DNA from: a virus
Direction: 5' to 3' (one strand)
Length of the DNA stretch: 63,683 nucleotides
IMG/VR virus record: IMGVR_UViG_3300010361_000005
Coordinates: 1 to 63,683 of that record
The notes beneath the pieces are model-generated. The model was not told the DNA's origin. It worked only from the letters and a program-made list of their open reading frames with translations, and did no database searches. Every line of letters begins with the position of its first letter. The first letter of the stretch is position 1. This document shows, one piece after another, positions 8,567-62,862 of the stretch. The position numbers and the translations under genes are program-made.

Positions 8567-9652
8567 ATGAAGCCAACGAAGCCCACCGTTCTCCAGATCG
8601 ACCACGGACCACGTGTTCAGGTGTGCGACGACACCCTGGCGGCGCTGGTCGCTGCGGGTCGCATGGATCCGGAGTTCGAGCGGATGCGCTTCCGCGATGC
8701 CGAGCAGTTCATTGCTGCTCGGTGGGAGGGTCCTCCCGCCGTTGCCGCAGCGCCGTACCCTGGTGCGGTAGTCAACCCGTTGGGACCGCCAACGATTTCG
8801 GGAACGACGTTCTCGATCGACATCGCACTGCAAAACCCCACGCGGGTGATCACGCCAATGGTCCTCGACCTGACAAGGCAGCGGTTCTTCGTGGACCGCG
8901 TGTTCACGTCAGCGGGAGGAGTCACGGGCGGCGCGGTCATCTATGACCTGGTGGTCACTCCTGACTACTACATGGACCGTGACATCCAGCGGGTCGAGCC
9001 AGGGTCGGAGTTCCCGATCGTGGCATTCAGCCGCCGCGCACCGGCAGCGGCTGTCGTCGAGAAGTGGGGCGGCAAGTTCTACTTCCTCGACGAAACCCGC
9101 GATCGCAACAACATCGCGGAGTTCACCAAGGCGATGCGCCAGCTGGCCAACACGGTGGTTCGCAAGATCAACCAGCGTGGCGTCCAGATCCTGGAGGCAT
9201 TCATCACGGCGAGCTCACGCACCTTCACCGGCGTCAGCTGGGGCAGCGTCAACACGACGTATGCCGCAGGTTCGAACTGGCCGCTGTTCCCGGCAAGGGA
9301 CTTCGCCAAGGCGGACCTGATCGCCGAGCAGGACGAGATGGACATGGATTACAACCTGTGGGTGATGAACCCCACGGAGATGTTCAATCTCGAGGGTATC
9401 TACGGCGACAAGCTGGGTGCCCTGCTCGACTCGTACGACATCGACATCTTCGTCACCAACCGCATGACTGCCGGCCAAGCCTACGCGCTGGCAGAGGGTG
9501 CGGTCGGCGAGATGCGCATCGAGGCACCGCTCAGCACGGAGACCTGGCGCGACCCGAACGGAAAGCAGCAAACCTGGGTCCAGTCGAGTGTCAGGCCTGT
9601 CATGTACGCGAACAATGCGTTCGCGGTCCTCAAGGTCACCGGACTCACCTAG
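8567..9652 (+). CDS. major capsid protein (HK97-fold by position)
   Basis: 361 aa, ATG 6 nt after GGAAGGGAGGGAAG; canonical position after protease/scaffold/decoration. Confidence 0.7.
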   Translation: MKPTKPTVLQIDHGPRVQVCDDTLAALVAAGRMDPEFERMRFRDAEQFIAARWEGPPAVAAAPYPGAVVNPLGPPTISGTTFSIDIALQNPTRVITPMVLDLTRQRFFVDRVFTSAGGVTGGAVIYDLVVTPDYYMDRDIQRVEPGSEFPIVAFSRRAPAAAVVEKWGGKFYFLDETRDRNNIAEFTKAMRQLANTVVRKINQRGVQILEAFITASSRTFTGVSWGSVNTTYAAGSNWPLFPARDFAKADLIAEQDEMDMDYNLWVMNPTEMFNLEGIYGDKLGALLDSYDIDIFVTNRMTAGQAYALAEGAVGEMRIEAPLSTETWRDPNGKQQTWVQSSVRPVMYANNAFAVLKVTGLT

Positions 9653-9660
9653 GAGGAGCG

Positions 9661-10182
9661 ATGGCACAGAAGATCATCAAGCATCGCCTCTTCACGTGGT
9701 TCGAGGTGACGCCCAACCCAGTCGACCCCGGCGGGCCGGATGTGCTCACGGAGCGCATCAACATTGCCGGTGACGACGTGGACATCACCAACGAGGACTA
9801 CGTCAAGCGCGGTGAGGAGCTCGACGCATTCTTCACCGACGAAGAGGCCGATCAGGTTCGCGCCGGAACGTACAACGGACCGGGTGCGGAGCAGGTGTAC
9901 TATCTCCGTCAGGGGAGCCAGACCGCTCCGCACAATCTGCCACGTCAGATCGGTCCTGCCGACGGCGAGCACGGCGACACGGCAAGCATGTCGGCCGAGG
10001 AGTTGGCCGACTACATCAACGAGCACAAGCTCAACGTCGATCAGACGGTGGCGCTCGCTGGCGATGACCTGGAGAGCATCGAGAAGGTCCTTGACGCAGA
10101 GAACCTTGCGACGGACAACGACCCGCGCAAGGGAGTCACGGATCGTCTCGAGGCCAAGATGAATGCCGCGACAACGGGCTAA
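9661..10182 (+). CDS. hypothetical virion-region protein (173 aa)
   Basis: ATG after AGGAGGAGCG; acidic. Confidence 0.5.
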   Translation: MAQKIIKHRLFTWFEVTPNPVDPGGPDVLTERINIAGDDVDITNEDYVKRGEELDAFFTDEEADQVRAGTYNGPGAEQVYYLRQGSQTAPHNLPRQIGPADGEHGDTASMSAEELADYINEHKLNVDQTVALAGDDLESIEKVLDAENLATDNDPRKGVTDRLEAKMNAATTG

Positions 10183-50740: not shown

Positions 50741-50995
50741 CTACGCACGAGACTTCCGCTTGCCACTTGGCATGCGTCCGGCTCGGAAACAATAGGGACA
50801 GCTTCGCCCGGTTATGGTCGTACCTCGACGTACCAGAGCACGAGTCCAATGACTTTTGCGTACTAGGAAGACCCCAGCACAGTCATCGCGCCCACACTCC
50901 ACGATCAGCCAGCCAGGGTAATCCTCGCTGGGCTTCACCTTGAAGGGTGGAAGCTTACTGACAAACTGCTCTGGATCTTCTAGTCTTCTTGCCAT
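50741..50995 (-). CDS. zinc-ribbon-like protein (84 aa)
   Basis: ATG after GGGAAGGGAGG; ECGRDDC...CPYC. Confidence 0.5.
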   Translation of the reverse strand: MARRLEDPEQFVSKLPPFKVKPSEDYPGWLIVECGRDDCAGVFLVRKSHWTRALVRRGTTITGRSCPYCFRAGRMPSGKRKSRA

Positions 50996-51063
50996 GCTAC
51001 CTCCCTTCCCATTGGGGTGCCGAGTGGCACCGGCCGACGCTCTCCCCAGAGCGCCAGCCGCTA
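50996..51063 (-). promoter_or_regulatory. early intergenic module M1
   Basis: Minus strand: TAG-TAGCGGCTG-[GCGCTCT GGGG AGAGCGTC]-GGCCGGTGCC ACTC GGCACC-CCAATGGGAAGGGAGG-ATG. Confidence 0.6.
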
Positions 51064-51330
51064 CTACTCGTGCAGTTTCATCTCCTTGCGGTGCATCTGA
51101 ATAGCGGTCCGCACGATGAGAATCCACTTCAGAGTGTTGCTGTCATCTTCGTCGTCAGCCGAAGACGTGATGACGTCATTCATGACTCGCCGGGCAGCGA
51201 GGATCTCCATGCGTTCATCAGACCGCGAGGCGATCCCCATTATGCCCAGAACGGCGAGCCAGAACATACCCAACACACCTACTACAGCGCATCCTATCCC
51301 CAGGATGAGCCAAGTATCGGGACTGAACAA
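51064..51330 (-). CDS. membrane protein (88 aa)
   Basis: TM WLILGIGCAVVGVLGMFWLAVLGIMGI; canonical AACCAGGGAGG leader. Confidence 0.55.
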   Translation of the reverse strand: MFSPDTWLILGIGCAVVGVLGMFWLAVLGIMGIASRSDERMEILAARRVMNDVITSSADDEDDSNTLKWILIVRTAIQMHRKEMKLHE

Positions 51331-51411
51331 CTATCCTCCCTGGTTTGTAGGTGTCGTACAGAGTGCCCTAAGCACTCTGGCCATGCCCGCTTCCGGGCAC
51401 AGCCACAGCGC
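51331..51411 (-). promoter_or_regulatory. early intergenic module M2
   Basis: Minus: GTGGCTG-[TGCCCG GAAG CGGGCA]-TGGC-[CAGAGTGC TTAGG GCACTCTG]-TACGACACCTACAAACCAGGGAGG. Confidence 0.6.
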
Positions 51412-51747
51412 TCACGAAGTTCTCCGGCGTCGTGGGTCACGGAGCCGAATGCTGCCAACAGACAGAGTCCTCATTCCACCAGGATCCGTGTAGAGTTGCA
51501 CCAGATGCTTCTCACGGTGCTTCTTCTTGTCGGCTGGTAGGAACTGTCGGAAAGACATCACGCGAACATCATAGATGTGAGCTGGCAATGTGTATTCGAT
51601 CTCACGGCCATCATCTTTGCCTTTTCGCGTGGTCTCCTGAACTTCGACCCATATCCGGCTTCCCACCAGCAGACGCTCAAGCGGCGTCGTATCTGGTGGG
51701 TCGCCGGATGCGAGGACTTCCTCGACCGCCTGCCTTACTTGGGGTTT
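51412..51747 (-). CDS. start-less coding segment in the -1 frame relative to 51735..52250 (possible frameshift extension, 108 aa)
   Basis: Protein-like sequence (…IWVEVQETTRKGKDDGREIEYTLPAHIYDVRVMSFRQF…) with no start codon or SD at its 5' end; first codon after the upstream stop is GTA. Confidence 0.4.
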   Translation of the reverse strand, partial: KPQVRQAVEEVLASGDPPDTTPLERLLVGSRIWVEVQETTRKGKDDGREIEYTLPAHIYDVRVMSFRQFLPADKKKHREKHLVQLYTDPGGMRTLSVGSIRLRDPRRRRTS

Positions 51748-52250
51748 GCGCCTGCGCGCGTGCCCCTGCGTCCGGCAGGACGCCCACCGCGCTTGGTGGG
51801 CTCGGTCTTGGCGGCACCACGCCGCCCGGACGTGCCGCTCGGCTGCGCCTTGGCAGCCGCGCCGCGCCGACCGGAGCCACCCGTCTTCTTGACCGTGGTG
51901 ACACCGTCGAACTGCCGACCGCGAGCGGTCAGGTTGCTCGGGGCAGAACCGTGACCGGCCTGCTCGTAGAGCGCCTTGGCCTGACCGACGCTGACGCCAG
52001 CGTAGACGGCGATGCGGGGCCAGCGGAAGTTGCCGCTGCTGGCCGCCTTGTAGATCGCTGCCGGCGTGGCCGCGATCTTCAGGCTGGGATCTGCGGTGAG
52101 CTCGGCCTGCCACATTGCGCGGCCGATCATGCTCATCTCGATCCCAGTCTGCTCGGAGTACCACCGCTCGGACTCCCCACCGTTCTTCTTGATGAGGGCG
52201 ACGAGCTTGTTGAACTGTGCGGTAGGCACAGCCCTTGCTTCCCTTGCCAT
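51735..52250 (-). CDS. DNA-binding-like protein with RGG/AT-hook-like basic tail (171 aa)
   Basis: Globular N-terminal half; tail GGSGRRGAAAKAQPSGTSGRRGAAKTEPTKRGGRPAGRRG. Confidence 0.55.
   Translation of the reverse strand: MAREARAVPTAQFNKLVALIKKNGGESERWYSEQTGIEMSMIGRAMWQAELTADPSLKIAATPAAIYKAASSGNFRWPRIAVYAGVSVGQAKALYEQAGHGSAPSNLTARGRQFDGVTTVKKTGGSGRRGAAAKAQPSGTSGRRGAAKTEPTKRGGRPAGRRGTRAGANPK
51741..51747 (-). promoter_or_regulatory. candidate -1 slippery heptamer A_AAC_CCC
   Basis: X_XXY_YYZ pattern in the zero frame, 3 nt before the TAA stop of the 171-aa gene. Confidence 0.35.
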
Positions 52251-52428
52251 TACTGCTCCCTTCGGTAGTGTCTACTCGGTGAATCAGGAAAGAAAATCAT
52301 ACCTGAACCTAGCCAGAAAAGCTAGTCCTTGGAGCAACTTATTCAGCGGCTCCTAAGTGCGCTCTATGGGCCCAGGGAGGACCACCCAGAGCGCACTTAG
52401 CAGCCGCCGTGGCTGCTATCGTGCTGTA
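52251..52428 (-). promoter_or_regulatory. long intergenic region with 13-bp stem hairpin (52353-52400), TATGAT -10 candidate and GACACTACC leader
   Basis: Minus: GGCGGCTG-[CTAAGTGCGCTCT...AGAGCGCACTTAG]-GAGCCGCTG ... GGTATGATT ... GTAGACACTACCGAAGGGAGCAGTA-ATG. Confidence 0.5.
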
Positions 52429-53139
52429 CTACTCGTCGTCGATCTCCTCGTCCGGGTCTTCGCCACGAGCGATGATCTCTGCCCGCTTGGCTTTGACCTC
52501 GGACTTCCATTCTGACTCGCCGAACATGCGGCCTCCGCAGACCGGTCCGATGCCGAGTTCACGGCTGATGCGGTTGGTGAGGCGATAGCCACAGTTGGAG
52601 CAGTGGCGGATCTCCATACCGAATCGAATCGCGCACTCGCGGATGCCCTCTTTGAGGATCATCTTCGCGATCTTGTTCTGCACGTCAGGCGGCAGCTTGC
52701 CTTGGCTGGGTCCGAACATGACGTACAGACGCTTGGCCTGCTTGTCACGCGATTCCCAGCATTGGTAGAACCGAAGCTCGTTGTCTTCGAGTTCCGTGCC
52801 GGCTTTCGGCAGTGCGTATCGACCAGGCGGCAATCCGGAGAGAGCCGTGCTCGTCTCGACACCTTCGCTGACGATGGTCTCGCGAGGCTTGCGAGGAAGC
52901 GGGATCAGAAGATCCAGAATCCTCCTAGCCTTTTCGAAGCTGAGCCGTGTCGTCTCCTCGACCCAGAACTCCTCGGGCTGCTCAAGAGCGTCCCGCTGTT
53001 CCTGGGTGAATGACGTCAGGTCCTGCTTCTGAATGAGGTCTCGGATGTAGTCCAGCTGTTTCTGACTTGCGACACGCTCACCACGTTCGGTTTGCCTGTC
53101 GCGAGCCCAGTCTGGTACCGAGTCTCGTTGTACGGTCAT
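52429..53139 (-). CDS. hypothetical protein with C-terminal DUF6011-like zinc motif (236 aa)
   Basis: CSNCGYRLTNRISRELGIGPVCGG. Confidence 0.55.
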   Translation of the reverse strand: MTVQRDSVPDWARDRQTERGERVASQKQLDYIRDLIQKQDLTSFTQEQRDALEQPEEFWVEETTRLSFEKARRILDLLIPLPRKPRETIVSEGVETSTALSGLPPGRYALPKAGTELEDNELRFYQCWESRDKQAKRLYVMFGPSQGKLPPDVQNKIAKMILKEGIRECAIRFGMEIRHCSNCGYRLTNRISRELGIGPVCGGRMFGESEWKSEVKAKRAEIIARGEDPDEEIDDE

Positions 53140-53219
53140 AAGACCTCCCTGGTTACTTACCGGATGGAGTTTACCTGAAACTCCGGGTCGGCGCTACTCT
53201 CGTAGCACCACCCGCAGGC
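53140..53219 (-). promoter_or_regulatory. early intergenic module M3
   Basis: Minus: TGA-GCCTGCGGG-[GTGCTAC GAGA GTAGCGC]-CGACCC-[GGAGTTT CAGGT AAACTCC]-..GTAACCAGGGAGG. Confidence 0.6.
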
Positions 53220-53432
53220 TCAGGCAGCGATGATGTCCTTGATGTCATCAAGGAGACCACCGTAGATGTCCTGCATGTGCTTGTGGTACTCCATCGCACG
53301 TGATGCGTTCTCGCGCTTCTGCTTAGACGGATGCGTGAGCTCGCGCTGTGCCAGGAGTTCCTTCTGACTATGCTTGTGGATCAGTTCTTCGACAGTGACG
53401 ACGATCGCGTCTAGCTTGTCCTTGTCACTCAC
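53220..53432 (-). CDS. hypothetical protein (70 aa)
   Basis: GTG start; 8-nt overlap with upstream gene. Confidence 0.5.
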   Translation of the reverse strand: MSDKDKLDAIVVTVEELIHKHSQKELLAQRELTHPSKQKRENASRAMEYHKHMQDIYGGLLDDIKDIIAA

Positions 53433-53676
53433 CGCGAAGCACTCCGGTGTCCTTCAGGTACTGCTCGAACTGAACGAGTACCGTGGCCTTGCGACCCTTG
53501 GGCTTGATGCCCGCCTTGCGCAAATATGCTTGCGCCTGTGCCATTGGCGGAACACGCCACCGCATGCCACTGCCGGCAGTCTTCACTTCCAGCTTCAGCT
53601 TGTTGTAGACCTGAAGCATGAAGAACGCCTGGATGGCCTCTGGCGTGTCGAGGATGATCATACCGTCCTTCGACAT
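53425..53676 (-). CDS. hypothetical protein (83 aa)
   Basis: 1-nt overlap (TGATG) with upstream gene. Confidence 0.5.
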   Translation of the reverse strand: MSKDGMIILDTPEAIQAFFMLQVYNKLKLEVKTAGSGMRWRVPPMAQAQAYLRKAGIKPKGRKATVLVQFEQYLKDTGVLRGE

Positions 53677-53867
53677 CAGACCACCTCAATGTTCGCGGCA
53701 CCATACTCACGGCACCGTTCGCAGTTGGGCAGATGACGTTTGCGGAAGTCTTCCCACCACTCTTCACCGATGTCAGCATATGCCCACATCGGATCTTCAG
53801 CTTGGGCTTGACTTGCCGCCGCCACATCCGGACATTCCGGATCTAGTGGGGCATGCCATCTTGGCAT
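53676..53867 (-). CDS. hypothetical Trp/acidic-rich protein (63 aa)
   Basis: ATG at 53867 sits 5 nt after the CCAGGGAGG leader. Confidence 0.5.
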   Translation of the reverse strand: MPRWHAPLDPECPDVAAASQAQAEDPMWAYADIGEEWWEDFRKRHLPNCERCREYGAANIEVV

Positions 53868-53937
53868 ACTTACCTCCCTGGTTCGGTACATCGGCTGACG
53901 TACCAGGAAGCCTAGCTGAGCTAGGCAACCTGCTGCG
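53868..53937 (-). promoter_or_regulatory. early intergenic module M4
   Basis: Minus: TGA-CGCAGCAGG-[GCCTAGC TCA GCTAGGC]-TTCCT-[GGTAC GTCAGCCGAT GTACC]-GAACCAGGGAGG. Confidence 0.6.
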
Positions 53938-54168
53938 TCACACCATCTCCGAGATCTTGACGCGGAGATACTTCGGCATGCTGCTGCTACTCTCTGAGCC
54001 GAACTTGAAGCGCATTACGATCTCACCACGAGTGAGATCCTGCACTTCAACGCTGATCCTGCCCTTGAACTGCGACTGCAGTTCGTGGACAAACTCCTCG
54101 TGGTGCGTGGTGAGAAGCTGACACAGCGCTGCTGCGACCAGATCCTTGCTTTGCGGGGCAGCCATCAC
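53938..54168 (-). CDS. hypothetical protein (76 aa)
   Basis: ATGA overlap. Confidence 0.5.
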   Translation of the reverse strand: MMAAPQSKDLVAAALCQLLTTHHEEFVHELQSQFKGRISVEVQDLTRGEIVMRFKFGSESSSSMPKYLRVKISEMV

Positions 54169-54413
54169 GCGAGGCTGCTGCGCAGCTTGTTCTTGTACCC
54201 GATGCTGTACAGCGGCACCGGCTTGCCGTCGGCAGGACGCGCGATGATCCAGCGCTCGGTGACCTTGATGTTCTTGCCACTGACGTGGACGATCGGGTGA
54301 TGGGTCTGGAGCGTCAGGGTGAAGAGACGCTTGTCAATCTCCACGCTCTTCTTGCCTGACGACCAGGCATCGAGAATCGCCTGCTGAGGCGTCAATTGCT
54401 TCTTGACGCCCAT
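54165..54413 (-). CDS. hypothetical protein (82 aa)
   Basis: TAATG junction. Confidence 0.5.
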   Translation of the reverse strand: MGVKKQLTPQQAILDAWSSGKKSVEIDKRLFTLTLQTHHPIVHVSGKNIKVTERWIIARPADGKPVPLYSIGYKNKLRSSLA

Positions 54414-54598
54414 TACCGCAGCCTCGACATGATGTCCTCGATCTGCGCGGACAACTGGCGCTGCTCCGCACGGATCTTGGCATCGGTATGCGTGTCCTTG
54501 AAGACCGCCTGCGCCCGGAGGCTCTCGCCCTTCAGGATTTCCCTGACGAGGTCGAACTCACCGGGAGTGAAGCTGACGGTGATCTTGGCTTCTGCCAT
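54413..54598 (-). CDS. hypothetical protein (61 aa)
   Basis: ATG at 54598, 5 nt after the CCAGGGAGG leader. Confidence 0.5.
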   Translation of the reverse strand: MAEAKITVSFTPGEFDLVREILKGESLRAQAVFKDTHTDAKIRAEQRQLSAQIEDIMSRLR

Positions 54599-54670
54599 GC
54601 TTACCTCCCTGGTTATAGTGTCAGATGATTCTGAGCACCGGCCATGCCCATCTCTGGGCACAGCCGCTGA
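54599..54670 (-). promoter_or_regulatory. early intergenic module M5
   Basis: Minus: TGA-TCAGCGGCTG-[TGCCCA GAGA TGGGCA]-TGGCCGGTGCTCAGAATCATCTGACACTATAACCAGGGAGG. Confidence 0.6.
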
Positions 54671-54892
54671 TCAGAGCTCTCCGTTGGTGTACAGGTCGTA
54701 CCACCGGTCGATGTCGCCCAGTCCTGGCGGCCAAGGCAGACTGTGCTTCTTGGCGTAGCTCTTGGCGTTCTTCACTGCGCGCTCGTCCCAGTCCTCGTCC
54801 TTCCAAGGATGGGCTTCGGGTGCGCTGGCCTCGTCGGCCAAGCTGGCGTAGTCCTCGCGCTCCTCGTCGTATGGCTCTTCTTGCCTGGCCAT
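54671..54892 (-). CDS. hypothetical acidic protein (73 aa)
   Basis: TAATG junction. Confidence 0.5.
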   Translation of the reverse strand: MARQEEPYDEEREDYASLADEASAPEAHPWKDEDWDERAVKNAKSYAKKHSLPWPPGLGDIDRWYDLYTNGEL

Positions 54893-55236
54893 TAGATGAG
54901 GAGGTACTCGGGACCGTAGACCATCAGCGCGTTCATGCGTGCCACGCGCCTGGCGACGAGCCGGCACTGGGCGTCACGCGAGAACGTGTCCCAACCAGGC
55001 TCGCCGTGCTCGATGTAGGACGCGCATTGGTCCCACATCTCCTTGATGAACCAGCTGTCCTCCTGCTCCATCACATCGGTCCACCCGTAGGTCGGGCTGC
55101 CGGTGTTCCGGTAGAGGCGCTGCTCCTCCCGCGTCAGCGCGGCCCACTCGTCATCGAGCGGTGCCTTCAGCTTCGGCAGTTTGAAGTCCAGTGTGATCTT
55201 GTCATACTGGAAGTCAATCGTGATGTGCTTATCCAC
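54892..55236 (-). CDS. hypothetical protein (114 aa)
   Basis: GTG start 6 nt after CCAGGGAGG. Confidence 0.5.
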   Translation of the reverse strand: MDKHITIDFQYDKITLDFKLPKLKAPLDDEWAALTREEQRLYRNTGSPTYGWTDVMEQEDSWFIKEMWDQCASYIEHGEPGWDTFSRDAQCRLVARRVARMNALMVYGPEYLLI

Positions 55237-55307
55237 ATCAACCTCCCTGGTTATGATACTCTGTCTGAGTACCAGCAAGCCCACCCTGGTGGGTGAGCCG
55301 CTGCTGC
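55237..55307 (-). promoter_or_regulatory. early intergenic module M6
   Basis: Minus: TGA-GCAGCAGCGGCTCA-[CCCAC CAGG GTGGG]-CTTGCTGGTACTCAGACAGAGTATCATAACCAGGGAGG. Confidence 0.55.
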
Positions 55308-55538
55308 TCAGTACCAGTCACGCTTTGGTACGTGTTGCCAGATCATCTCGTCTAGCTCTGCTTGGAGACGATCCTTGTTGATCGGTACGTCGGTGACGCG
55401 CAGAAAGAACAGGACGTCGCGAGTCAACTGCGCTCTCGTCTTGCCCGGAACGTACACGTGATCGGGTGCCTTCTTGCTTACCTTGACAATCACGTGTCCG
55501 TCATCCGTCAGCGTCAGAGAGTAGGAGACCCTGACCAT
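55308..55538 (-). CDS. hypothetical protein (76 aa)
   Basis: TGATG junction with upstream stop. Confidence 0.5.
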   Translation of the reverse strand: MVRVSYSLTLTDDGHVIVKVSKKAPDHVYVPGKTRAQLTRDVLFFLRVTDVPINKDRLQAELDEMIWQHVPKRDWY

Positions 55539-55876
55539 CAGTATTCGTCCAGCTTTGCTTCGCCACCGCATCTCTTACAGCGGAAGTACGTTGTCATGCC
55601 ACCGTAAGCATCGACCTCGTGCTTACCGTGCTTGAAGTCTGAGGGATGCGGGCACTCGTCGTGCTGCATCATGAAGTCCTCAGGCTGTGGCCCGGAACCA
55701 TAGCAGGTCTGCTTGATCTTGTGCGTGACCTGCTCGATCATGTTCTCGTGCCTGGTGCTTACCCAGCCGCCGCAGAAGGAGCAGTGTAGCAGTAGCTCCC
55801 ATGCTTCGTCGGGTCCGTACCACGGTGGCTCGCGCGTGACCCAAGCGTCATACGCTCTTGCGTCGATGCTTGACAC
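55538..55876 (-). CDS. Cys/His-rich zinc-finger-like protein (112 aa)
   Basis: GTG start; CSFCGG ... CKRCGG. Confidence 0.5.
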   Translation of the reverse strand: MSSIDARAYDAWVTREPPWYGPDEAWELLLHCSFCGGWVSTRHENMIEQVTHKIKQTCYGSGPQPEDFMMQHDECPHPSDFKHGKHEVDAYGGMTTYFRCKRCGGEAKLDEY

Positions 55877-56015
55877 GAGTTACACCACCCTTCTTGAATC
55901 GGCGAGCCCAAGCTTCTGCGTTGGTGCGTGCTTCAGCCTCGGTCTTGCCGTAGAAGACACAGATCTCCACGCCGATCTTGAAGTGAAACGGGTGGAGTGT
56001 TGCGTGTGTTGGCAT
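55848..56015 (-). CDS. hypothetical protein (55 aa)
   Basis: ATG at 56015, 4 nt after the CCAGGGAGG leader. Confidence 0.4.
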   Translation of the reverse strand: MPTHATLHPFHFKIGVEICVFYGKTEAEARTNAEAWARRFKKGGVTRVKHRRKSV

Positions 56016-56077
56016 ACAACCTCCCTGGTTATGGAGCGTGAACTCCGGGTGGGGCACTGTCGTGCCCTGCCCGCAGG
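56016..56077 (-). promoter_or_regulatory. early intergenic module M7
   Basis: Minus: TGA-CCTGCGGGCA-[GGGCAC GACA GTGCCC]-CACCC-[GGAG TTCACG CTCC]-ATAACCAGGGAGG. Confidence 0.6.
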
Positions 56078-57079
56078 TCACTTGTCCAGTGACTTCTGCT
56101 GCTTGAGACCTGGATCGTTGCTCACGATCCTCGCGTTGGCACCCTTGTCGCTGCCCGAGCCGTATGCAGTGTAGTTCAGCTTGCGCTGTTCCCTGTACTT
56201 GACAGGCTTGCGCTTCGCCGTGCACTGCTTACACGTGCAGTCCGCTGCGTGAGGCCTGAGCTCGGGGAAGTCTCCCCAGAGCGCATCCTTGGCCTGGTCA
56301 CGGATGTCGCGGATGACCAGAGCGACGCTGTCCTTCTCGCCGGTGCTACCAGACCGCAGCGCTGTGATGTCCTTCAGGCGCTTGCGAATCATGGTGACGA
56401 ATCCCTCGACGTAGCTGATCTGCCACTCGTCAGGATGCACCGAGACGACGTCACGTGGCGTCTTGCCGATGGTCTTGAGATGCGCCTTGTACTCGCGCAG
56501 CATCTTGCCGTTGTCGGCAGTCTTGTAACCGCCAGTGCCGTTCGGGACACGCCACTCAGGATGCCCGAGCCAGATCGCGATGTCGATGTACTTCATGCCG
56601 GCCTCTTTCGCCAACATGACATTCTCGCCCATCGTTTTGTTCGGGTCGTACTTGGGCTTGATGTGGTCGACCATCTGCAGGAGCAGATCGGTGAACAACA
56701 TGTCCAGGTACGAGAGGTCAGACGCCATGCCGTACACAGCAGCGCTGTTCTGCTTGAAGTCCCAGACGCTGTAGCTGCTGTAGCACCGGCAGAAGTCCAC
56801 GCAGGCCATCCACAGCCACGCGATGTTGTTCCTCGCGTCGATGTGCACGCCGTTGCGGAGCTCTGACCACCAGCTGATGTCCATGTCGCGCCGGACGACC
56901 AGCCGAGCGTTCTTGTCCTGGCCGAGCTTCAGCATTGCCTGGTCAATGGCGTACTTCTCCATCAGGAGGTCCGCCTTGGCCATGAATGCTTCCTTCTCGG
57001 CAGGGAAGTCGGTGCTGTTCGCCTTGGCGATCAGACCTCTGACTTTCCGCAGGATATCTTCGTGTTCCTGTTCCGTCAT
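56078..57079 (-). CDS. hypothetical protein with DUF2786-like N-terminus (333 aa)
   Basis: ILRKVRGLIAKANSTDFPAEKEAFMAKADLLMEKYAI. Confidence 0.6.
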   Translation of the reverse strand: MTEQEHEDILRKVRGLIAKANSTDFPAEKEAFMAKADLLMEKYAIDQAMLKLGQDKNARLVVRRDMDISWWSELRNGVHIDARNNIAWLWMACVDFCRCYSSYSVWDFKQNSAAVYGMASDLSYLDMLFTDLLLQMVDHIKPKYDPNKTMGENVMLAKEAGMKYIDIAIWLGHPEWRVPNGTGGYKTADNGKMLREYKAHLKTIGKTPRDVVSVHPDEWQISYVEGFVTMIRKRLKDITALRSGSTGEKDSVALVIRDIRDQAKDALWGDFPELRPHAADCTCKQCTAKRKPVKYREQRKLNYTAYGSGSDKGANARIVSNDPGLKQQKSLDK

Positions 57080-57164
57080 GCCTTTCCTCCCTGGTTTGGT
57101 AGTGTCTTACGCGGTGCGCCTAGCACACCGGGAAGTCTACCTGTTACGGTAGACTCCCGCTGGG
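57080..57164 (-). promoter_or_regulatory. early intergenic module M8
   Basis: Minus: TAA-CCCAGCGGGAG-[TCTACC GTAACA GGTAGA]-CTTCCC-[GGTGTGC TAG GCGCACC]-GCGTAAGACACTACCAAACCAGGGAGG. Confidence 0.6.
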
Positions 57165-57347
57165 TTAGGCGTCGTCTTGCGGCCAGTAGTCGAGCGAGTT
57201 GATGAACCAGCAGATCAGACGCGCTTGCCATCTGAACCGCACGATCTTCAACGGACGACCATGGTACGGATCGAAGATCTCATAGCCGCGTGGCCTGAGA
57301 GCCTTCATCAGCTGGACGATCTGGTTGATCTCTTGCGTGTGGGGCAT
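57165..57347 (-). CDS. hypothetical protein (60 aa)
   Basis: ATG 1 nt after upstream stop (alternative ATG at 57365). Confidence 0.4.
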   Translation of the reverse strand: MPHTQEINQIVQLMKALRPRGYEIFDPYHGRPLKIVRFRWQARLICWFINSLDYWPQDDA

Positions 57348-57348
57348 G

Positions 57349-57591
57349 TTACTCACGATGCCCATCCGCAAAGACGATGGCGTAGATGCCGCCGTCCTTG
57401 TCAACGCAGATTCCGCCACGTTCGGCAGCGCAGCCTGGGCCGATGTACGTTGAATAACGTACAGTGACGCTGAAATCGGCGAACTGCTTAGCCTCGTTGA
57501 CAGCGTCGAGCACGAAGTTCTTGTGCTCATCGCTGAGGTTGTTGAGCGGACTGTATTTACCGCGCAGTCCGTGGACATGAACCGTGCTCAT
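57349..57591 (-). CDS. hypothetical protein (80 aa)
   Basis: ATGA overlap. Confidence 0.5.
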   Translation of the reverse strand: MSTVHVHGLRGKYSPLNNLSDEHKNFVLDAVNEAKQFADFSVTVRYSTYIGPGCAAERGGICVDKDGGIYAIVFADGHRE

Positions 57592-57689
57592 CGCTTCGGC
57601 GGCCAGTTACCGCGACGCTTCAGCTGCGTGTACTTGATGAACATCCCCACGGGGATGCCAATCGCGAGCATGATAAGCATGCCTGTCAT
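57588..57689 (-). CDS. small membrane peptide (33 aa)
   Basis: ATG 4 nt after the CCAGGGAGG leader; MTGMLIMLAIGIPVGMFIKYTQLKRRGNWPPKR. Confidence 0.45.
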   Translation of the reverse strand: MTGMLIMLAIGIPVGMFIKYTQLKRRGNWPPKR

Positions 57690-57769
57690 ATTTCCTCCCT
57701 GGTTTGTGTTATTCGTGTTGGTGCTTATGGCGCACCGGCCGACCACCTTTAGGGTGGGCAGCCGCTGAG
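57690..57769 (-). promoter_or_regulatory. early intergenic module M9
   Basis: Minus: TGA-CTCAGCGGCTG-[CCCACC CTAAA GGTGG]-TCGGCC-[GGTGC GCCATAA GCACC]-AACACGAATAACACAAACCAGGGAGG. Confidence 0.6.
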
Positions 57770-57952
57770 TCACTTCGCAAAGTGGGCAGCGCGTGTGCTT
57801 AGCCAGAGTTCGCGTTCCTTGGCAAGCCGTTCCTGTTCCTTGAGTTCCCAGGCTGGGTAGCCTGATGGCTTACTGAAGCCACGCTTGCTGCGCTTGCCCC
57901 TGCGCTCGCGCGGCGAGTGGCCGATCTTGCGCGGGTGCTGGCGTTCTGCCAT
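57770..57952 (-). CDS. small basic protein (60 aa)
   Basis: ATG after the CCAGGGAGG leader; Arg/Lys-rich. Confidence 0.5.
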   Translation of the reverse strand: MAERQHPRKIGHSPRERRGKRSKRGFSKPSGYPAWELKEQERLAKERELWLSTRAAHFAK

Positions 57953-58021
57953 TTCTGTTCCTCCCTGGTTCGGGGTGCGTAAGCACCGGGACGGGGCACC
58001 CTGAGATGCCCCTCCCGCTGA
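57953..58021 (-). promoter_or_regulatory. early intergenic module M10
   Basis: Minus: TAG-TCAGCGGGAG-[GGGGCA TCTCAGGG TGCCCC]-GTCCC-[GGTGC TTAC GCACC]-CCGAACCAGGGAGG. Confidence 0.6.
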
Positions 58022-58297
58022 CTACGCCTGAAGTGCGGCCAGCTTGGCCTGAAGCGCCGTGATGCGCTCAGCCTTCTTGGCAGCTGCCTTCGCGGTGCGC
58101 TCAGCCTTCTTGGCCTCGCGCTCGGCCTTGGCGGTGGCCGCCTTGGCCTGGCGCTCCTGGCGGAGTGCCTCGTAGCTCGCCTTGCGCGCTGCGAGCAACG
58201 CGTCGGTGAGCTCGGTGACGTCCGTGACCTCGATCTGGAACTTCTTGCCAGACTTGAGGGTGACGGTGATCTTGCTGTTGTTGACGTCGGTGCTCAT
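58022..58297 (-). CDS. Ala/Lys/Glu-rich coiled, histone H1/Hlp-tail-like protein (91 aa); first early gene
   Basis: ATG at 58297, 5 nt after the CCAGGGAGG leader; AKAATAKAEREAKKAERTAKAAAKKAERITALQAKLAALQA. Confidence 0.55.
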   Translation of the reverse strand: MSTDVNNSKITVTLKSGKKFQIEVTDVTELTDALLAARKASYEALRQERQAKAATAKAEREAKKAERTAKAAAKKAERITALQAKLAALQA

Positions 58298-58400
58298 TTC
58301 TACCTCCCTGGTAGTTAGGGTGCGTTTGGCATTGTTGCCTCCGGTCACCAGCAGGGGGCAGGTTCAGCGCAGGGTAGTTCACGCTCAGCCTGCCCCAGCT
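58298..58400 (-). promoter_or_regulatory. early intergenic module M11 / leader of the first early gene
   Basis: Minus: CAGCTGG-[GGCAGG ..26 nt.. CCTGCC]-CCCTGCTGGTGACC...CTAACTACCAGGGAGG. Confidence 0.5.
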
Positions 58401-58913
58401 GCTAACCGTAGGGAGGGAGGTTTTGGCTTCCTAGGTGCCCGTGTCCGCGTCTCGTTCCGCGTCGCTGCGCCTGGCCTACTCCGGTTCGCTCGCGTGCCCG
58501 CCGGTTCCTTGAAGCCTCAGCTGCCTACGCTGAGCCGTACTCTGCCGGTGGCGTTCGCGCCTCGTGACGTCGCCCAAATGCCGCCGCGTCCGTAGGTCGC
58601 AAACCCTTTCGCCAGGATCGCCGCGACGCGGTCACCGCGTCGTAGCTACCTAGTTGGGGCTGCGCGCCTAGTAACCCCGTTGCTAACCCTGGTCATCCCC
58701 CTGGCGCGCGAGCCGAGGGACCATCACGCCTACTAGGGTCAGTCCGTGCCTTGAAATCGCACACGCGTCGCCCGTTGGTGAGGGTGCGACTTTGTGGTAC
58801 GCGTCGCCCCTACGATTGGTCGTTCCGCCGGAGCAGCACCCCTTTGGCCCGTTGGGGCGGGTCGCCCGCTCGCGCGGTCCCACCGTCCGGTGCCTTCAAA
58901 CTTCGGCTCCGGC

Positions 58914-58934
58914 CTGGGCGCCTCACGCGCCCAG
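58914..58934. other. 8-bp stem hairpin CTGGGCGC-CTCAC-GCGCCCAG
   Basis: Read directly in the ORF-free region. Confidence 0.5.
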
Positions 58935-58957
58935 CCCCTACATAGTAGCGCGAACCG

Positions 58958-58976
58958 GACCCCGCGGGGTCGTTTT
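58958..58976 (+). terminator. terminator-like palindrome GACCCCGCGGGGTC followed by GTTTT
   Basis: 14-bp perfect palindrome plus a short T run on the plus strand only. Confidence 0.35.
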
Positions 58977-59029
58977 CGTCGGATTTGGGACATAACTTTT
59001 TCAGCGCCGTTGGGCCTTGACCCATAGGC

Positions 59030-59167
59030 TTGAGGCTATACCTGGGCGCGTCGCTACGGTGGCGTGTACCGTTGGCGCTACGCGACCCATCCGCTAGGCT
59101 GGTTTGAGGCTACCTGGCCCACCTGGACCATGACGGCTGGCCGTACGGAGCGTGGTGGCTTGAGGCT
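59030..59167. repeat. three TTGAGGCT repeats (59030, 59104, 59160)
   Basis: GGCTTGAGGCT / GGTTTGAGGCT / GGCTTGAGGCT read directly. Confidence 0.55.
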
Positions 59168-59222
59168 CGGCTAGGCGGTACGCTCCCCGGCGGCTCGGAT
59201 TTGAGCGCTGAATTGTGGCACC

Positions 59223-59713
59223 GAATCCCTGTGGAATGGTGGGTGGCTGAGTTCTTTGAGGATTGAGGTTGCGAATCCGCTGGTAAATCGGAACTTCTAA
59301 GGCTCAAAGCCGAGGGAATGCCTTCGCAAAACGTGGGGAAAAGGCCGCAGAATCCCATGTGTCTATTCTCTCCTGATTTGGCTACGACAAATCCGAATTC
59401 TTTGTGGTCACACATGCCATTTCGCATGGCGATTGTCGCAAAAAACTAAACACAAAGGAATCCGAAAGTGCGGGTGCAACGCACAAAAATTGCATTCAGA
59501 GATAGTTTCATGGCAAATAGCCGATTTGATCCGAATTATTTCAGTATTTTCGGCCATTTGAATCCGACAAATCCGACAAAAAAGCTTCTGTACTCCTTAG
59601 CTCAGTCATCAAATCGTATTTGTCTCTAAAAAAAAACTCGAAACGCAGGTTCTAGCAAATCCATAATCGCATGGAATCCAGATTCACCATTTCTATAGAA
59701 AGTAAAGAATCCC
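59223..59713. repeat. iteron-like cluster of about 12 RAATCCN repeats in AT-rich DNA
   Basis: GAATCC-type cores at 59223, 59273, 59350, 59389, 59457, 59528, 59561, 59570, 59657, 59673 and 59707, plus AAATCG variants. Confidence 0.6.
59561..59578. repeat. tandem AATCCGACA x2
   Basis: Two directly abutting 9-mers followed by an A run. Confidence 0.7.
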
Positions 59714-59776
59714 ATTCCATACACAAATCTCTCGTTCCCGTCGAGTCCAGATCGTCCTCGCGCGTAGGACTTGCGA

Positions 59777-59790
59777 GCGCGTACACGCGC
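59777..59790. promoter_or_regulatory. GCGCGTACACGCGC box (exact)
   Basis: Exact 14-mer. Confidence 0.6.
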
Positions 59791-59827
59791 GGGAGGAGAG
59801 CGATTTTCGCAAATGGGTCCAACGTAT

Positions 59828-59841
59828 GCGCGTACACGCGC
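59828..59841. promoter_or_regulatory. GCGCGTACACGCGC box (exact)
   Basis: Exact 14-mer, 51 bp from the copy at 59777. Confidence 0.6.
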
Positions 59842-60073
59842 TCGAGAGAGGAAATCTGCACTAGGCCGCCGCCATCGCACTTTCAGCCCACAAAGACGCT
59901 CGAATGCCCACAAAAGAAACTCCGACCGACCCGACTAGCTTTTCACCGCCGGATAAGGTAGACTAAGCCGTCGGTGTTCGGGGTGCTACCCGCTCGGGTC
60001 CTGGTAGTGTCCCTGAGCGGTAGCATCCCGGCACTAACGGCACCAAGCGACACTACCAACAGGGGACGGGGAT

Positions 60074-60648: not shown

Positions 60649-62862
60649 TTGAAAGCAAAGCAATACCTTCCGCTGGCGCTGATGCTTGCGGCGCTGATGG
60701 CGCTCACAGGTGTCATCACGGGTGTAGCATCCGCCGACGTGACAGGTGCAACCGCGACAAAGAACTGCCAGCAGGGTCCTTTTTCTCTGGGGCAGTCCAT
60801 TCACTGTACCTTTACGGTACAGAACGCCGGTGCATTTCCGGCGACGATCGACGTTCTGACGGAGACAAGCCCGCTTCCGAGCGGACCTACCACTCCGATC
60901 ACGTGCGTCGGTACCGACAGCGTGACGTACCACACAGGTGACACGCTCCCTCCGGGTGTGACCTGTTCCGGTGCGTTCGACGTTCCTGTCGGGAACGATC
61001 CAGCGTCATGTGGAACGCTACTGCGGGATAGGGTCGAGATCGACCTGAGCTATCCGCAGTTCGATCCGCCGCTGACCGCTGGTGCGTTTGCGACAGCAAC
61101 AACGGCCATCGTTTGTCCGGCGCAAGCGACCGTGGCGAAGACGGCTGACACGCTGAGCAAGCCGACCGACCAGGTGACGTATACGGTCACAGTCACAAAC
61201 CCGAATGTTGTGGCTGAGGACGTCACGTCCGTCAACGACACGCTCGTCGGGGACATCACGAGTCACTTCGCGTCGCCGCTTGCGGCCGGAGCGTCGGAGA
61301 GCTACACGTACCAGCGCACGGTGCTGGCGGGTGATCCTAACCCGCTGGTCAACACCGTGACGGCTGTACTCAGCGATGAGGGTACATCAGCGACGGCAAC
61401 GGCTTCGGCCAGCACCAAGCTGTTCTACCCAAGTGTTCACGTGACCAAGACGTGCGCACCAAGTCCCATCGAGGTTGGCGGGACGCTTCTCTGCACCATC
61501 ACGGTCACAAACACGAGCACCGGAACAACTCCTCCGGCGCTTCAACTCGACTCGCAGACTGATACACGGGCTGGGAATCTGGACTTGGTTGGAAATCCGC
61601 AGGTTGTTTCCAACAATTGTCTTGCCTCGCTCGCGACCGGCGGTAGCTGCACCATCGTTACCACCGATCACGTCGGCCTGTCCGATCTGCCTGGTCCGGT
61701 CGTGGACACCGCAACGGTGCATTACCATCCGCTCGGGTTCACGAACAACATCACGGACACGGCTGCTGCATCGGTGCCGGTGACTACGACAGCGACGATG
61801 ACGCTGACGAAGTCCTGTTCGCCGGCAGTCGAGAATGTTGGCGACACGACGACGTACACCTTCGTGATCACAAATACGGGTGACGTGCCGCTGACTCGCC
61901 AGAGCGTGAACGACACGCTTCTTGGTAACATCGGTGCTGACTTCCCCGCGACTCTTGCTCCTGGGGATTCGGCAACGGTGACCGAGACGCGGGTTGTCCT
62001 CGCGGGTGACCCGTCGCCGCTTCCGAACACGGTCACCAGCGTTTACGGCAACTCCGTGGTCAACGTGACGATCACGAAGTCGGCATCGTGTTCTATCGTT
62101 ATCAAGCATCCGTCCATGACGCTGACCAAGGCCTGCAATCCGCCGTCGGCTCATGTCGGCGATACGGTGCAGTACGGCTACACGGTCACCAACACGGGCG
62201 ATGTTACTCTGAACCTGAAGAGTGCCACCGATACGCTGCTCGGCGATCTGACCGCTGACTTCCCGGCAACGCTCGCGCCTGGACAGTCGGTGTCGTTCTC
62301 TGTGCCACGAGTAATCCTACAGAGCGACCCGAACCCACTACCGAACACGGTCACGACTGTGTACCAGGAAGAGGGCTTCACGGTCACTCTGACGAAGTCG
62401 GCTAGCTGCTCAGTGACGATCATTCCGCCCGGTACGGTGAAGGTGACGATCGGGTTCTGGAAGACGCATGCTCCGAAGTCCTGCAAGCAGGGCAACGGCA
62501 AGCAGGCGGATGCACTGACCCCGGCTCTCGGTTCGGGATTCCCGCTCGGTAGCGGTTACACGCTAACCGATCCGTGCGTGGCGGTGCAGCTGCTGAGCAA
62601 GGCTGTCCTGGGTTCGGGTGATCCCATCGGGAACATGCTTGCCCAGATGGTCGGTGCGGAACTGAACATCAATGCCGGCGGGACAACGAGCGGCAGTTGC
62701 TCGTTCATCAACGGCGCTATTACCGATGCCAACACGCTTCTGTCCGCGATCAACTTCAACGGCACCAGCTACACCAAGCCGCTGACGACCGCGCAGAAGA
62801 ACGAGGCATCTACGCTGGAAGGTCTGTTCTCAAGCTACAACAACGACAGCACGACCTGCTAG
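60649..62862 (+). CDS. secreted repeat protein (DUF11-type beta-domain repeats plus Cys-containing C-terminal domain, 737 aa)
   Basis: TTG start 5 nt after AAGGAG; signal peptide MKAKQYLPLALMLAALMALTGVITGVASA; five repeats incl. near-duplicate units LTKSCSPAVENVGDTTTYTFVITNTGDVPL... and LTKACNPPSAHVGDTVQYGYTVTNTGDVTL... Confidence 0.75.
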   Translation: MKAKQYLPLALMLAALMALTGVITGVASADVTGATATKNCQQGPFSLGQSIHCTFTVQNAGAFPATIDVLTETSPLPSGPTTPITCVGTDSVTYHTGDTLPPGVTCSGAFDVPVGNDPASCGTLLRDRVEIDLSYPQFDPPLTAGAFATATTAIVCPAQATVAKTADTLSKPTDQVTYTVTVTNPNVVAEDVTSVNDTLVGDITSHFASPLAAGASESYTYQRTVLAGDPNPLVNTVTAVLSDEGTSATATASASTKLFYPSVHVTKTCAPSPIEVGGTLLCTITVTNTSTGTTPPALQLDSQTDTRAGNLDLVGNPQVVSNNCLASLATGGSCTIVTTDHVGLSDLPGPVVDTATVHYHPLGFTNNITDTAAASVPVTTTATMTLTKSCSPAVENVGDTTTYTFVITNTGDVPLTRQSVNDTLLGNIGADFPATLAPGDSATVTETRVVLAGDPSPLPNTVTSVYGNSVVNVTITKSASCSIVIKHPSMTLTKACNPPSAHVGDTVQYGYTVTNTGDVTLNLKSATDTLLGDLTADFPATLAPGQSVSFSVPRVILQSDPNPLPNTVTTVYQEEGFTVTLTKSASCSVTIIPPGTVKVTIGFWKTHAPKSCKQGNGKQADALTPALGSGFPLGSGYTLTDPCVAVQLLSKAVLGSGDPIGNMLAQMVGAELNINAGGTTSGSCSFINGAITDANTLLSAINFNGTSYTKPLTTAQKNEASTLEGLFSSYNNDSTTC

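Follow-up and report, generated by a model that had tools for sequence, protein, structure and literature searches.

The window analysed here is the whole of IMG/VR virus record IMGVR_UViG_3300010361_000005 (63,683 nt), a phage-like genome of about 64 kb (63.7 kb) with about 59% G+C, which encodes a terminase, a portal/protease, a DnaE-like polymerase, a primase/helicase, a SNF2 helicase and ThyX. Upstream of the SNF2 helicase gene a train of small genes runs on the minus strand; eleven copies of a composite module are found along the train, and the groups of one to four genes lying between them have members overlapping stop-to-start. Each module features a long hairpin, in most cases including the stop codon of the preceding gene, followed by a leader that is identical in all copies but one and stands immediately before the next start codon. 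The module is very likely a functional RNA structure of the sense strand.

A covariance model (CM) was built from 38 non-redundant copies of the module and run, with filters off, on both strands of the whole window. Ten matches, scoring between 33.6 and 48.5 bits and all on the minus strand, fall at gaps already listed by the first-pass annotation, made from the sequence alone; two variants are also recovered, the first module (58335-58413, 21.9 bits) and a "longer variant" (52339-52412, 17.5 bits). In the whole window there is no further match with E < 0.05, except antisense matches to the modules, none above 18.5 bits. The variable element, previously described as a separate stem-loop of 5-8 bp, proves to be the top of one continuous long helix, about 24 nt per strand, which also takes in the flanks and the stop-codon region. 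In this helix a box X, (C/U)(A/U)GCGG, pairs with a box Y, CCGG(U/A)G, around an invariant G·G apposition, and the 4-6 nt ahead of X pair with the nucleotides right after Y, upstream stop codon included: TGA faces TCA, TAG faces CTA. The stop codon is located 0-4 nt before X, or coincides with X1-3, in 35 of the 37 sequence clusters. In 31 of 39 clusters the G·G mismatch is 12-13 nt down from the apex, and in 25 of 39 the loop is 4 nt long; the top of the stem varies freely in sequence. The earlier description had not included the pairing of the stop codon, the G·G mismatch with its constant distance from the loop, or the anti-leader, a complement of the leader described below.

The modules, all on the minus strand, are given here from right to left. 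Module 1 (58298-58420; CM score 21.9 bits) is a variant located in a 5' untranslated region (UTR), without an upstream open reading frame (ORF): an anti-leader, CCTCCCTCCCT (58410-58420), is accompanied by a hairpin with an enlarged apex (58335-58413), the leader ACCAGGGAGG (58303-58312) and an ATG at 58297. Module 2 (57953-58029; 39.5 bits) features the stop codon TAG, a hairpin at 57973-58029, a second hairpin GGTGC/GCACC, the leader at 57960-57969 and an ATG at 57952. Module 3 (57690-57776; 40.7 bits) has TGA as stop codon, its hairpin at 57722-57776, the leader at 57694-57703 and an ATG at 57689. In module 4 (57080-57171; 38.0 bits) a TAA stop codon and a hairpin (57115-57171) are followed by GACACTACC (57098-57106), the leader (57086-57095) and the ATG of a DUF2786 gene (57079). 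Stop codons of the next five modules are all TGA. Module 5 (56016-56085; 45.0 bits), with flanks CTGCGG/CCGGAG, has its hairpin at 56032-56085, the leader at 56020-56029 and an ATG at 56015; module 6 (55237-55315), with flanks CAGCGG/CTGGTA, a hairpin at 55259-55315, the leader at 55242-55251 and a GTG at 55236, scores 33.6 bits as a copy outside the CM seed. Module 7 (54599-54678; 48.5 bits) contains a hairpin (54625-54678), GACACTATA, the leader (54604-54613) and an ATG (54598). The flanks are CAGCAG/CTGGTA in module 8 (53868-53944; 39.1 bits; hairpin 53890-53944, leader 53873-53882, ATG 53867) and CTGCGG/CCGGAG in module 9 (53140-53226; 34.2 bits; hairpin 53170-53226, leader 53144-53153), which precedes the ATG of a DUF6011 gene at 53139. 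Module 10 (51331-51417; 45.3 bits) again has TGA, with flanks CTGTGG/CCAGAG, its hairpin at 51364-51417, the leader at 51335-51344 and a TTG start codon at 51330. In module 11 (50996-51072; 40.8 bits) the stop codon TAG corresponds to X1-3 of TAGCGG; the hairpin, at 51017-51072, is followed by the variant leader GGAAGGGAGG (51000-51009) and by an ATG at 50995.

The existence of the hairpin is supported by covariation. Among the 38 non-redundant copies 81.6% of the cells pair, the values for column shuffles and slid controls being 58.5 ± 1.7 and 25-42%, respectively, and double changes occur in 13 of the 13 tested pairs. An independent prediction by RNAalifold gives the same hairpin, with the stop-codon stem formed and the G·G unpaired. 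For 73 distinct copies from related viral contigs, 86.4% pair against 57.1% when shuffled and 17 of 17 pairs show compensatory changes, in an alignment which was made by the CM and leans towards the model. The stop-codon stem was used neither to find nor to anchor the modules; if 3' flanks are swapped between clusters, the number of pairs falls from 5.31 to 4.18 ± 0.14 (z = 7.9), and an energy of -9.9 kcal/mol is weakened to -5.5 (z = -11). At X2:Y5' an A:U pair is present 42 times and a U:A pair 23 times; pairing there was not required, and A·A or U·U is never observed in true modules.

The structure is also strand-specific. The sense fold is more stable than the antisense one in 36 of 39 clusters (mean -6.6 kcal/mol, Wilcoxon p = 1e-7), and the sense strand features 73 G·U pairs vs 13 A·C appositions: both the stability and the G·U excess indicate that selection acts on one strand only, the one with the polarity of the mRNA. 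This asymmetry is by far most simply explained by RNA; a hairpin of the non-template DNA strand is a formal, much less likely alternative. The first-pass annotation had taken the covarying stems as the sign of a functional structure, and had proposed a covariation test and a CM search of relatives. Covariation was tested against shuffled columns, and relatives were searched with the CM: compensatory changes in all tested pairs bear the claim out, all helix positions covary in the 73 copies, the search returned 123 matches in relatives, and the strand asymmetry adds that the structure is RNA of mRNA sense.

A second hairpin, in which Y pairs with a downstream arm, adjoins the first (hairpin 1) and excludes the lower stem of the long hairpin. 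The type of Y predicts its downstream complement: GGUG corresponds to CACC in 10 of 19 cases and to CUCC in 0 of 19, GGAG to CUCC in 11 of 13, and GGUA to UACC in 4 of 5. When the 5' arm is masked in constrained folding, the second hairpin forms in 58 of 60 modules; from the constrained folds, only this result and the energies of individual modules are used here. The long and the two-hairpin forms are apparently within about 1-3 kcal/mol of each other, as read off individual module folds. X, Y and the downstream arm covary three ways, which speaks for a role of both folds. It had been anticipated that the flanks CAGCGG and CCGGTG can pair, and that alternative folds exist; the covariation of the flank pairing and the prediction of the second hairpin from the type of Y agree with this.

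No sigma-70-type promoter was found by a scan of the minus (mRNA) strand in any module; a single plus-strand match (54592-54619) lies on the opposite strand over module 7. In Rfam, searched with 50900-59700 at E up to 1, chance-level matches only were obtained and no family, C4 included; for the whole window there are 0 tRNAs and 0 Rfam 15 matches at or above the gathering threshold. The hairpin module, well supported as a family of RNAs, is absent from Rfam.

The leader ACCAGGGAGG is present in exactly 10 copies in the window, all on the minus strand (51335-58312) and all 4-7 nt ahead of a start codon, where leaders had been reported to sit; when up to one mismatch is allowed, 18 matches are found, vs 4.8 ± 2.3 in shuffles. 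An invariant leader had been claimed for at least 11 early genes: ten exact copies agree with this, while the eleventh module (50996-51072) carries GGAAGGGAGG in place of ACCAGGGAGG, so that the claim was a slight overstatement. None of the late and replication genes of the window has a ACCAGGGAGG leader; their Shine-Dalgarno (SD) sequences are ordinary and varied. An ACC stands unchanged in front of AGGGAGG and has no counterpart in a consensus 16S tail of actinobacteria, from which the tail of the host may differ. The final 14 nt ahead of the SD are 76% A+C.

A further motif, GACAC(T)ACC, was said to occur often in the modules; it is present in only two or three of them, and also as a 5'-UTR element of the SNF2 gene and of the gene starting at 52250. 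Six exact copies of GACACTACC are found in the window, about 0.5 being expected (23535, 50713, 52264, 57098, 60003 and 60049). Four of the six are located in leaders shortly ahead of the SD, including those after TATAAT (SNF2 gene) and after TATGAT (52250 gene), and a hairpin at 60002-60058 bears one copy per arm. GACACTACC is a 5'-UTR element common to some modules, the SNF2 gene and the 52250 gene. A promoter for a phage RNA polymerase was considered and rejected: GACACTATA resembles the SP6/K11 promoter core, but it is present in only 2-3 modules, and no RNA polymerase gene was seen among the large ORFs scanned. Neither an RNA polymerase nor an RNA-processing enzyme is recognisable among the window ORFs scanned; a 737-aa ORF located beyond the early region (60649-62862, plus strand) encodes a protein with Ig-like DUF7507/DUF11 repeats.

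Relatives of the window were collected by an exact-pattern scan of IMG/VR and through the SNF2 protein. They form a graded series of uncultured phages, from 99% to 28% SNF2 identity, in which the gene order DUF2786, DUF6011, ..., SNF2, RecB-like is retained throughout. Modules of the same architecture are present in all relatives down to 46% identity, and the 123 CM matches, all of them on the gene strand, lie with few exceptions upstream of the helicase. The leader is constant inside each clade and different between clades: CCAGGGAGG in the window clade (10-13 copies), ACAGGGAGG(T/A) in the clade with 64-75% SNF2 identity to the window (7-10 copies), GGAGGGTACC at 46% (6-12 copies) and GAGAGGGAA at 28% (7-8 copies).

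The "longer variant" was originally placed at 52251-52428 and ascribed to the same architecture. It does match the CM but is a different element, an anti-leader hairpin (52339-52412, minus strand): directly after the stop codon of the DUF6011 gene, a three-tier hairpin of about 30 bp carries at its apex CCTCCCTGGG (52371-52380), complement of the leader CCAGGGAGG. By computation, CCTCCCTGG at this apex pairs with the leaders in a duplex of 9-10 bp and -20 to -22 kcal/mol. Across clades leader:anti-leader duplexes range from -20 to -25 kcal/mol, about twice the values for leader and 16S tail (-9 to -12). The second anti-leader copy, CCTCCCTCCCT (58410-58420), located just 5' of the first module, is conserved in relatives; in the minimum free energy fold CCUCCCUC pairs with the SD of the first gene across the module 1 hairpin (z = -3.9).

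Leader and complement change together between clades, as CCAGGGAGG(A)/TCCTCCCTGG, CAGGGAGGT/ACCTCCCTG, GGAGGGTACC/GGTACCCTCC and GAGAGGGAA/TTCCCTCTC. In the window, 64-75%, 46% and 28% clades the complement is present in one copy per genome, on the same strand, at or next to the apex of a strong hairpin. The anti-leader core is conserved, while the stems differ, in the relatives L016, L030, L022 and L027; the complements TCCTCCCTGG in L030, ACCTCCCTG in L022 and TCCTCCCTG in L027 each fit the nucleotide after the SD in their own leaders. In the 46% clade GGTACCCTCC is found in 6 of 6 loci, in the loop of an unrelated stem of 11-12 bp, and L054 carries TTCCCTCTC.

On the 3' side of the window's anti-leader hairpin a promoter-like element (52296-52324, minus strand) is formed by TAGCTT, 17 nt and TATGAT, followed by GACACTACC (52264-52272) and by the gene start at 52250; it was read from the sequence and was not called by the strict scan. 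A -10 element, AGGTAT(C/G)AT, is kept after the anti-leader hairpin in relatives. In L022, from the 75% clade, a consensus-like promoter TTGACA-16-TATCAT is located there (about 7760-7790); the weaker TAGCTT-17-TATGAT suggests activator dependence in the window lineage. Four members of the 46% clade (L032, at about 9650-9740, L035, L036 and L037) feature, just 3' of the anti-leader hairpin, a T-arm-like GGGTTCGA(C/T)TCCC hairpin within an acceptor-like stem, a possible tRNA-like minihelix; for this T-arm-like GGGTTCGAnTCCC, restricted to the 46% clade, ARAGORN reported no tRNA and Rfam no match.

In two syntenic relatives, L044 and L046, whose SNF2 proteins are 34% identical to that of the window, the slot of the module is occupied by type II hammerhead ribozymes, ten in each contig according to a core-pattern scan (L044 1231-8600 and L046 4829-12200; IMGVR_UViG_3300046536_000116 and 3300047317_000073); L045 has one. 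Two copies pass the Rfam gathering score, while the core-pattern scan recovers all ten. The order of elements in the slot is a stop codon abutting stem II, the ribozyme, an A/C-rich spacer of 10-25 nt, a repeated leader, TGGAGGATGA, and the start codon. Hammerheads occurring in clusters next to phage genes have been proposed to cut long transcripts into gene-length RNAs, an activity also shown in vitro (PMC3088659).

A hammerhead cut provides the upstream RNA with a 3' hairpin and the downstream RNA with a 5' hairpin, which is the arrangement that the two-hairpin form of the module would give. The long form, in turn, has the geometry of an RNase III site. Substrates of this enzyme are helices of about 22 bp, or two turns, in which mismatches at the target site lead to single-strand cuts leaving stabilising 3' hairpins (PMC3867540); the module presents a 5' strand of about 24 nt with the G·G in mid-stem, comparable to a helix of about 20-22 bp with an internal mismatch. 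Because of the hammerhead slot and of this geometry, intercistronic processing and stabilisation is ranked first: the module would be an intercistronic element for mRNA processing and stability, with a start-associated leader targeted by a cis-encoded anti-leader. A probability of roughly 0.45 is assigned to this reading, which leans on analogy with known systems. Terminator or attenuator, RNA processing site, 5' stabiliser and translational enhancer had originally been listed as possible functions, without ranking; processing and stabilisation are now the best supported, as hammerheads occupy the same slot in syntenic relatives, and termination or attenuation the least.

According to the processing reading, each module would act in cis in the polycistronic early mRNA, its long form serving as a site for a double-strand-specific host endonuclease of RNase III type, with the G·G mismatch restricting or positioning the cut. 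After cleavage the upstream cistron would retain hairpin 1 as a protective 3' end, while the downstream cistron would refold the second hairpin at its 5' end; the train would thereby be resolved into stable units of one to four genes, each provided with an identical strong start site. Conservation of the leader beyond the SD core would reflect pairing with the phage-encoded anti-leader. The copy in the 5' UTR (58410-58420) may keep the first gene masked as long as the hairpin between them is neither cut nor opened, and the copy at 52371-52380, at the apex of the hairpin closing the train, could shut off all early cistrons together.

Several points weigh against this reading. Cleavage at the modules is argued from analogy and geometry, the hammerhead argument being an analogy between non-homologous elements, and the RNase III specificity of the presumed actinobacterial host is beyond modelling. 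If both strands were cut at the mismatch, hairpin 1 would be lost and the second hairpin shortened, so that single-strand or offset cleavage is needed. As for the anti-leader, none was found in the locus DNA examined of three of the eight leader-bearing clades sampled (L025, L044, L038), and in the window clade it is partly paired inside its own apex. In the portions examined of TM4 and Pixie, no complement, with up to 3 mismatches, was found of the start-associated sequence (SAS), the actinobacteriophage element compared with the leader below. The chance of finding one complement per locus is 0.1-0.25; the case for the anti-leader therefore rests on 2-3 independent covariation events and on the recurrent apical position.

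A wider scheme, possible though on balance doubtful, would combine two layers of RNA control: a bistable stop-codon hairpin that both reports translation of the upstream gene and is the substrate for cleavage, its place being taken elsewhere by hammerheads, and a single anti-leader loop that masks and unmasks all early cistrons, perhaps also in SAS-bearing phages such as those of cluster K1. Were this true, the anti-leader loop, located where two temporal transcription units meet, would be an RNA-only timer of early-gene shut-off, and the purpose of start-associated sequences would be explained.

Less likely than processing is that the module works without cleavage, as a translation insulator or a ribosome-sensing switch: the hairpin would lock the end of the ORF and the C-rich strand, keeping the A/C-rich leader and the SD single-stranded, and a ribosome terminating inside the stem would flip the module to the two-hairpin form, coupling or timing the next initiation, or handing over ribosomes that the helix brings near. 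The position of the stop codon before or within the X box, the covariation of the stop-region stem, the apparently small energy difference between the two forms and the ready formation of the second hairpin when the 5' arm is masked are all in favour of this, as is the prediction that in the long-hairpin fold the SD is about half unpaired (0.52). Masking the 5' arm, however, lowers the predicted accessibility of the SD from 0.52 to 0.37 (p = 0.002): simple unmasking of the SD is not supported, and the main mechanism is not considered to be a switch based on SD sequestration. Nor does this reading account for the conserved sequence of the box, for the invariant G·G and its fixed distance of 12-13 nt from the loop, or for the presence of ribozymes in the same slot of relatives.

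It is unlikely that the modules are intrinsic terminators lacking a U tract, or pause sites or attenuators, metering transcription of the early train. Stable GC-rich hairpins do lie directly 3' of stop codons, their alternative pairing is formally like a terminator/antiterminator pair, and the actinophage-like context fits, terminators without poly-U having reportedly been described in the early region of Streptomyces phage phiC31. The canonical combination of a GC-rich hairpin and a U tract is nevertheless lacking: in 38 of 39 clusters the longest run of T between hairpin and SD is 1-2 nt, in agreement with the absence of U tracts already remarked upon, and a terminator scan found no terminator-like site at the modules. 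Mycobacterial RNA polymerase requires the U tract in vitro, and a stem of this length (about 24 nt per strand), interrupted by a mismatch, does not resemble that of a terminator. Moreover, none of the modules is followed by a promoter from which transcription could resume, so that a series of eleven efficient terminators would silence the distal genes, conserved ones included.

A role at the DNA level, with RNA structure as a secondary feature, is less probable still. On this view cassettes would be shuffled at the modules, as at the PeSL elements discussed below (PMC4122927), or a DNA-binding regulator would bind there. They do bound small gene groups of variable content across relatives. Compared with the window (54671-54900), the 99%-identical relative L014 (5457-6020) has an extra module-plus-gene cassette of 354 nt and a diverged upstream gene, and homology is interrupted within module 7, at a point between the X box and Y: the segment from Y to the leader is identical, while hairpin 1 and the upstream gene differ. 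The modules are thus also mosaic joints, to judge from the sequence comparison, but breakpoints are expected of intergenic DNA anyway. Strand asymmetry and compensatory changes are not expected of a duplex DNA site or of homology-driven recombination, the conserved blocks are merely 6-10 nt long, and a joint could coexist with an RNA function.

That the module is a new class of self-cleaving ribozyme, replacing the hammerhead of the distant relatives L044 and L046 in the same slot, is very improbable: two adjacent hairpins and a closing stem superficially recall a three-way junction, and Rfam offers no match at E up to 1, but the second hairpin and the closing stem are mutually exclusive and hence cannot coexist as a junction, nearly all conserved nucleotides are helical and covarying, and the sole invariant non-canonical feature is one G·G, where the cores of known small ribozymes contain some ten or more unpaired, conserved nucleotides.

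As for the genomic context, an AT-rich, ORF-free control region at 59370-59720, with repeats of ATTTG..TCCGACAAATCCGA and of ATCCGAATT, contains a promoter-like TTCAAA-16-TG-AATAAT on the minus strand (59562-59535) and may be an early promoter or origin region. At 59774-59846 the palindrome GCGCGTACACGCGC stands twice, with a distance of 51 nt and 17-nt arms that are 88% complementary; the two copies look like operators. The control region is separated from the first module by about 0.7 kb of DNA rich in G+C (58420-59100), which is devoid of convincing ORFs, features several short direct repeats (GTTGGGGC..., ACGCGTCGCCC) and could be a long structured 5' leader. One ORF of 1045 aa (4947-8084) matches both portal and head-maturation protease families. 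The window's proteins, DNA polymerase III alpha and terminase among them, are about 40% identical to those of actinobacteriophages (Microbacterium, Mycobacterium, Streptomyces, Arthrobacter), and no nucleotide-level relative is present among 50,697 deposited phage genomes. A scan of bacterial genomes with the full-module pattern, meant to identify the host, gave 120 single matches, a number that equals the chance expectation, and the CM confirmed none.

Host-dependent hairpins and self-cleaving hammerheads in the same operon slot provide comparative evidence for selection on cutting early mRNA into units. The anti-leader, which covaries with the leader and recurs in the mycobacteriophage Adephagia, offers a concrete hypothesis for the SAS, testable by mutation, and the modules may be of practical use as compact parts, insulator plus ribosome binding site (RBS), for high-GC hosts. 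The kinds of element involved, intercistronic RNA elements of phages and SAS, are known; a route from them to something more novel is plausible.

Among known systems, the closest to the leader is the SAS, a motif of 10-13 nt with an SD core, found 3-9 nt before start codons in 10-19 copies of one orientation, confined to the non-structural arm and conserved beyond the needs of 16S pairing (PMC3203893, PMC7302621). It has been catalogued in actinobacteriophages since 2011, and its function is still called "ill-defined" in papers from 2024-2025. The leader of the window, 10 nt long with an SD core and placed 4-7 nt before 10 start codons, is likewise on one strand and in the non-structural arm only. 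The sequences differ, ACCAGGGAGG in the window, GGGATAGGAGCCC in cluster K and GGGAAAGGACCCC in cluster EF, and so does the upstream partner, which in the window is an RNA hairpin with a stop codon and not a promoter. In cluster K the partner is the extended SAS (ESAS), composed of imperfect inverted repeats of 17 bp, in which the deviations from symmetry lend no support to pairing at the RNA level, and now read as SigA promoters with an operator. ESAS and module share a conserved element directly 5' of the SAS, inverted symmetry and a variable centre, but the modules are without promoter, and their conserved 6-nt blocks flank a covarying, strand-specific stem. The first-pass annotation, which had named cluster K SAS/ESAS as the nearest analogue, was therefore right for the leader and not for the upstream element.

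The K1 phages contain a single SAS in reverse orientation, recorded without explanation in the 2011 description. In Mycobacterium phage Adephagia (L177, JF704105) the reverse SAS, GGCCTCCTATCCC at 58682, occupies the 10-nt apical loop of a hairpin of about 19 bp between genes 92 and 93, as the window's anti-leader is at the apex of its own hairpin; according to RNA-seq, late transcription starts in the same intergenic region (PMC11373665). In Microbacterium phage Ajin, whose DNA polymerase is the best match, there is just a single SAS-like site.

In coliphage T7, RNase III processing sites are located between the early genes. Like them, the modules are intercistronic hairpins of about two turns in a polycistronic early mRNA, with a non-Watson-Crick element in mid-stem and no U tract, and a 3' hairpin would remain as stability determinant; a stop codon within the stem, a conserved alternative hairpin and an invariant leader after each copy are peculiar to the window, where cleavage is presumed from these likenesses. 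Type II hammerheads (Rfam RF02276; PMC3088659) use the identical slot, and their products would carry 3' and 5' hairpins, but the window has 0 copies of the hammerhead core CTGATGAG and the modules have no conserved unpaired catalytic core. The PeSL elements of T4-type phages, composed of an early promoter and a stem-loop, act through DNA homology (PMC2839356, PMC4122927). They too are repeated composite motifs between small variable early genes, and one indel boundary of the window lies at module 7, but the modules have no promoter and are selected for RNA pairing. Finally, the c4 RNA of P1 and P7 and the sar RNA of P22 are cis-encoded antisense RNAs, masking the RBS of co-transcribed phage genes. 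The anti-leader is similarly a short complement of an RBS region, carried by a stable hairpin on the same strand and in the same transcription unit as its targets; in the window, however, one anti-leader would serve about ten identical targets.

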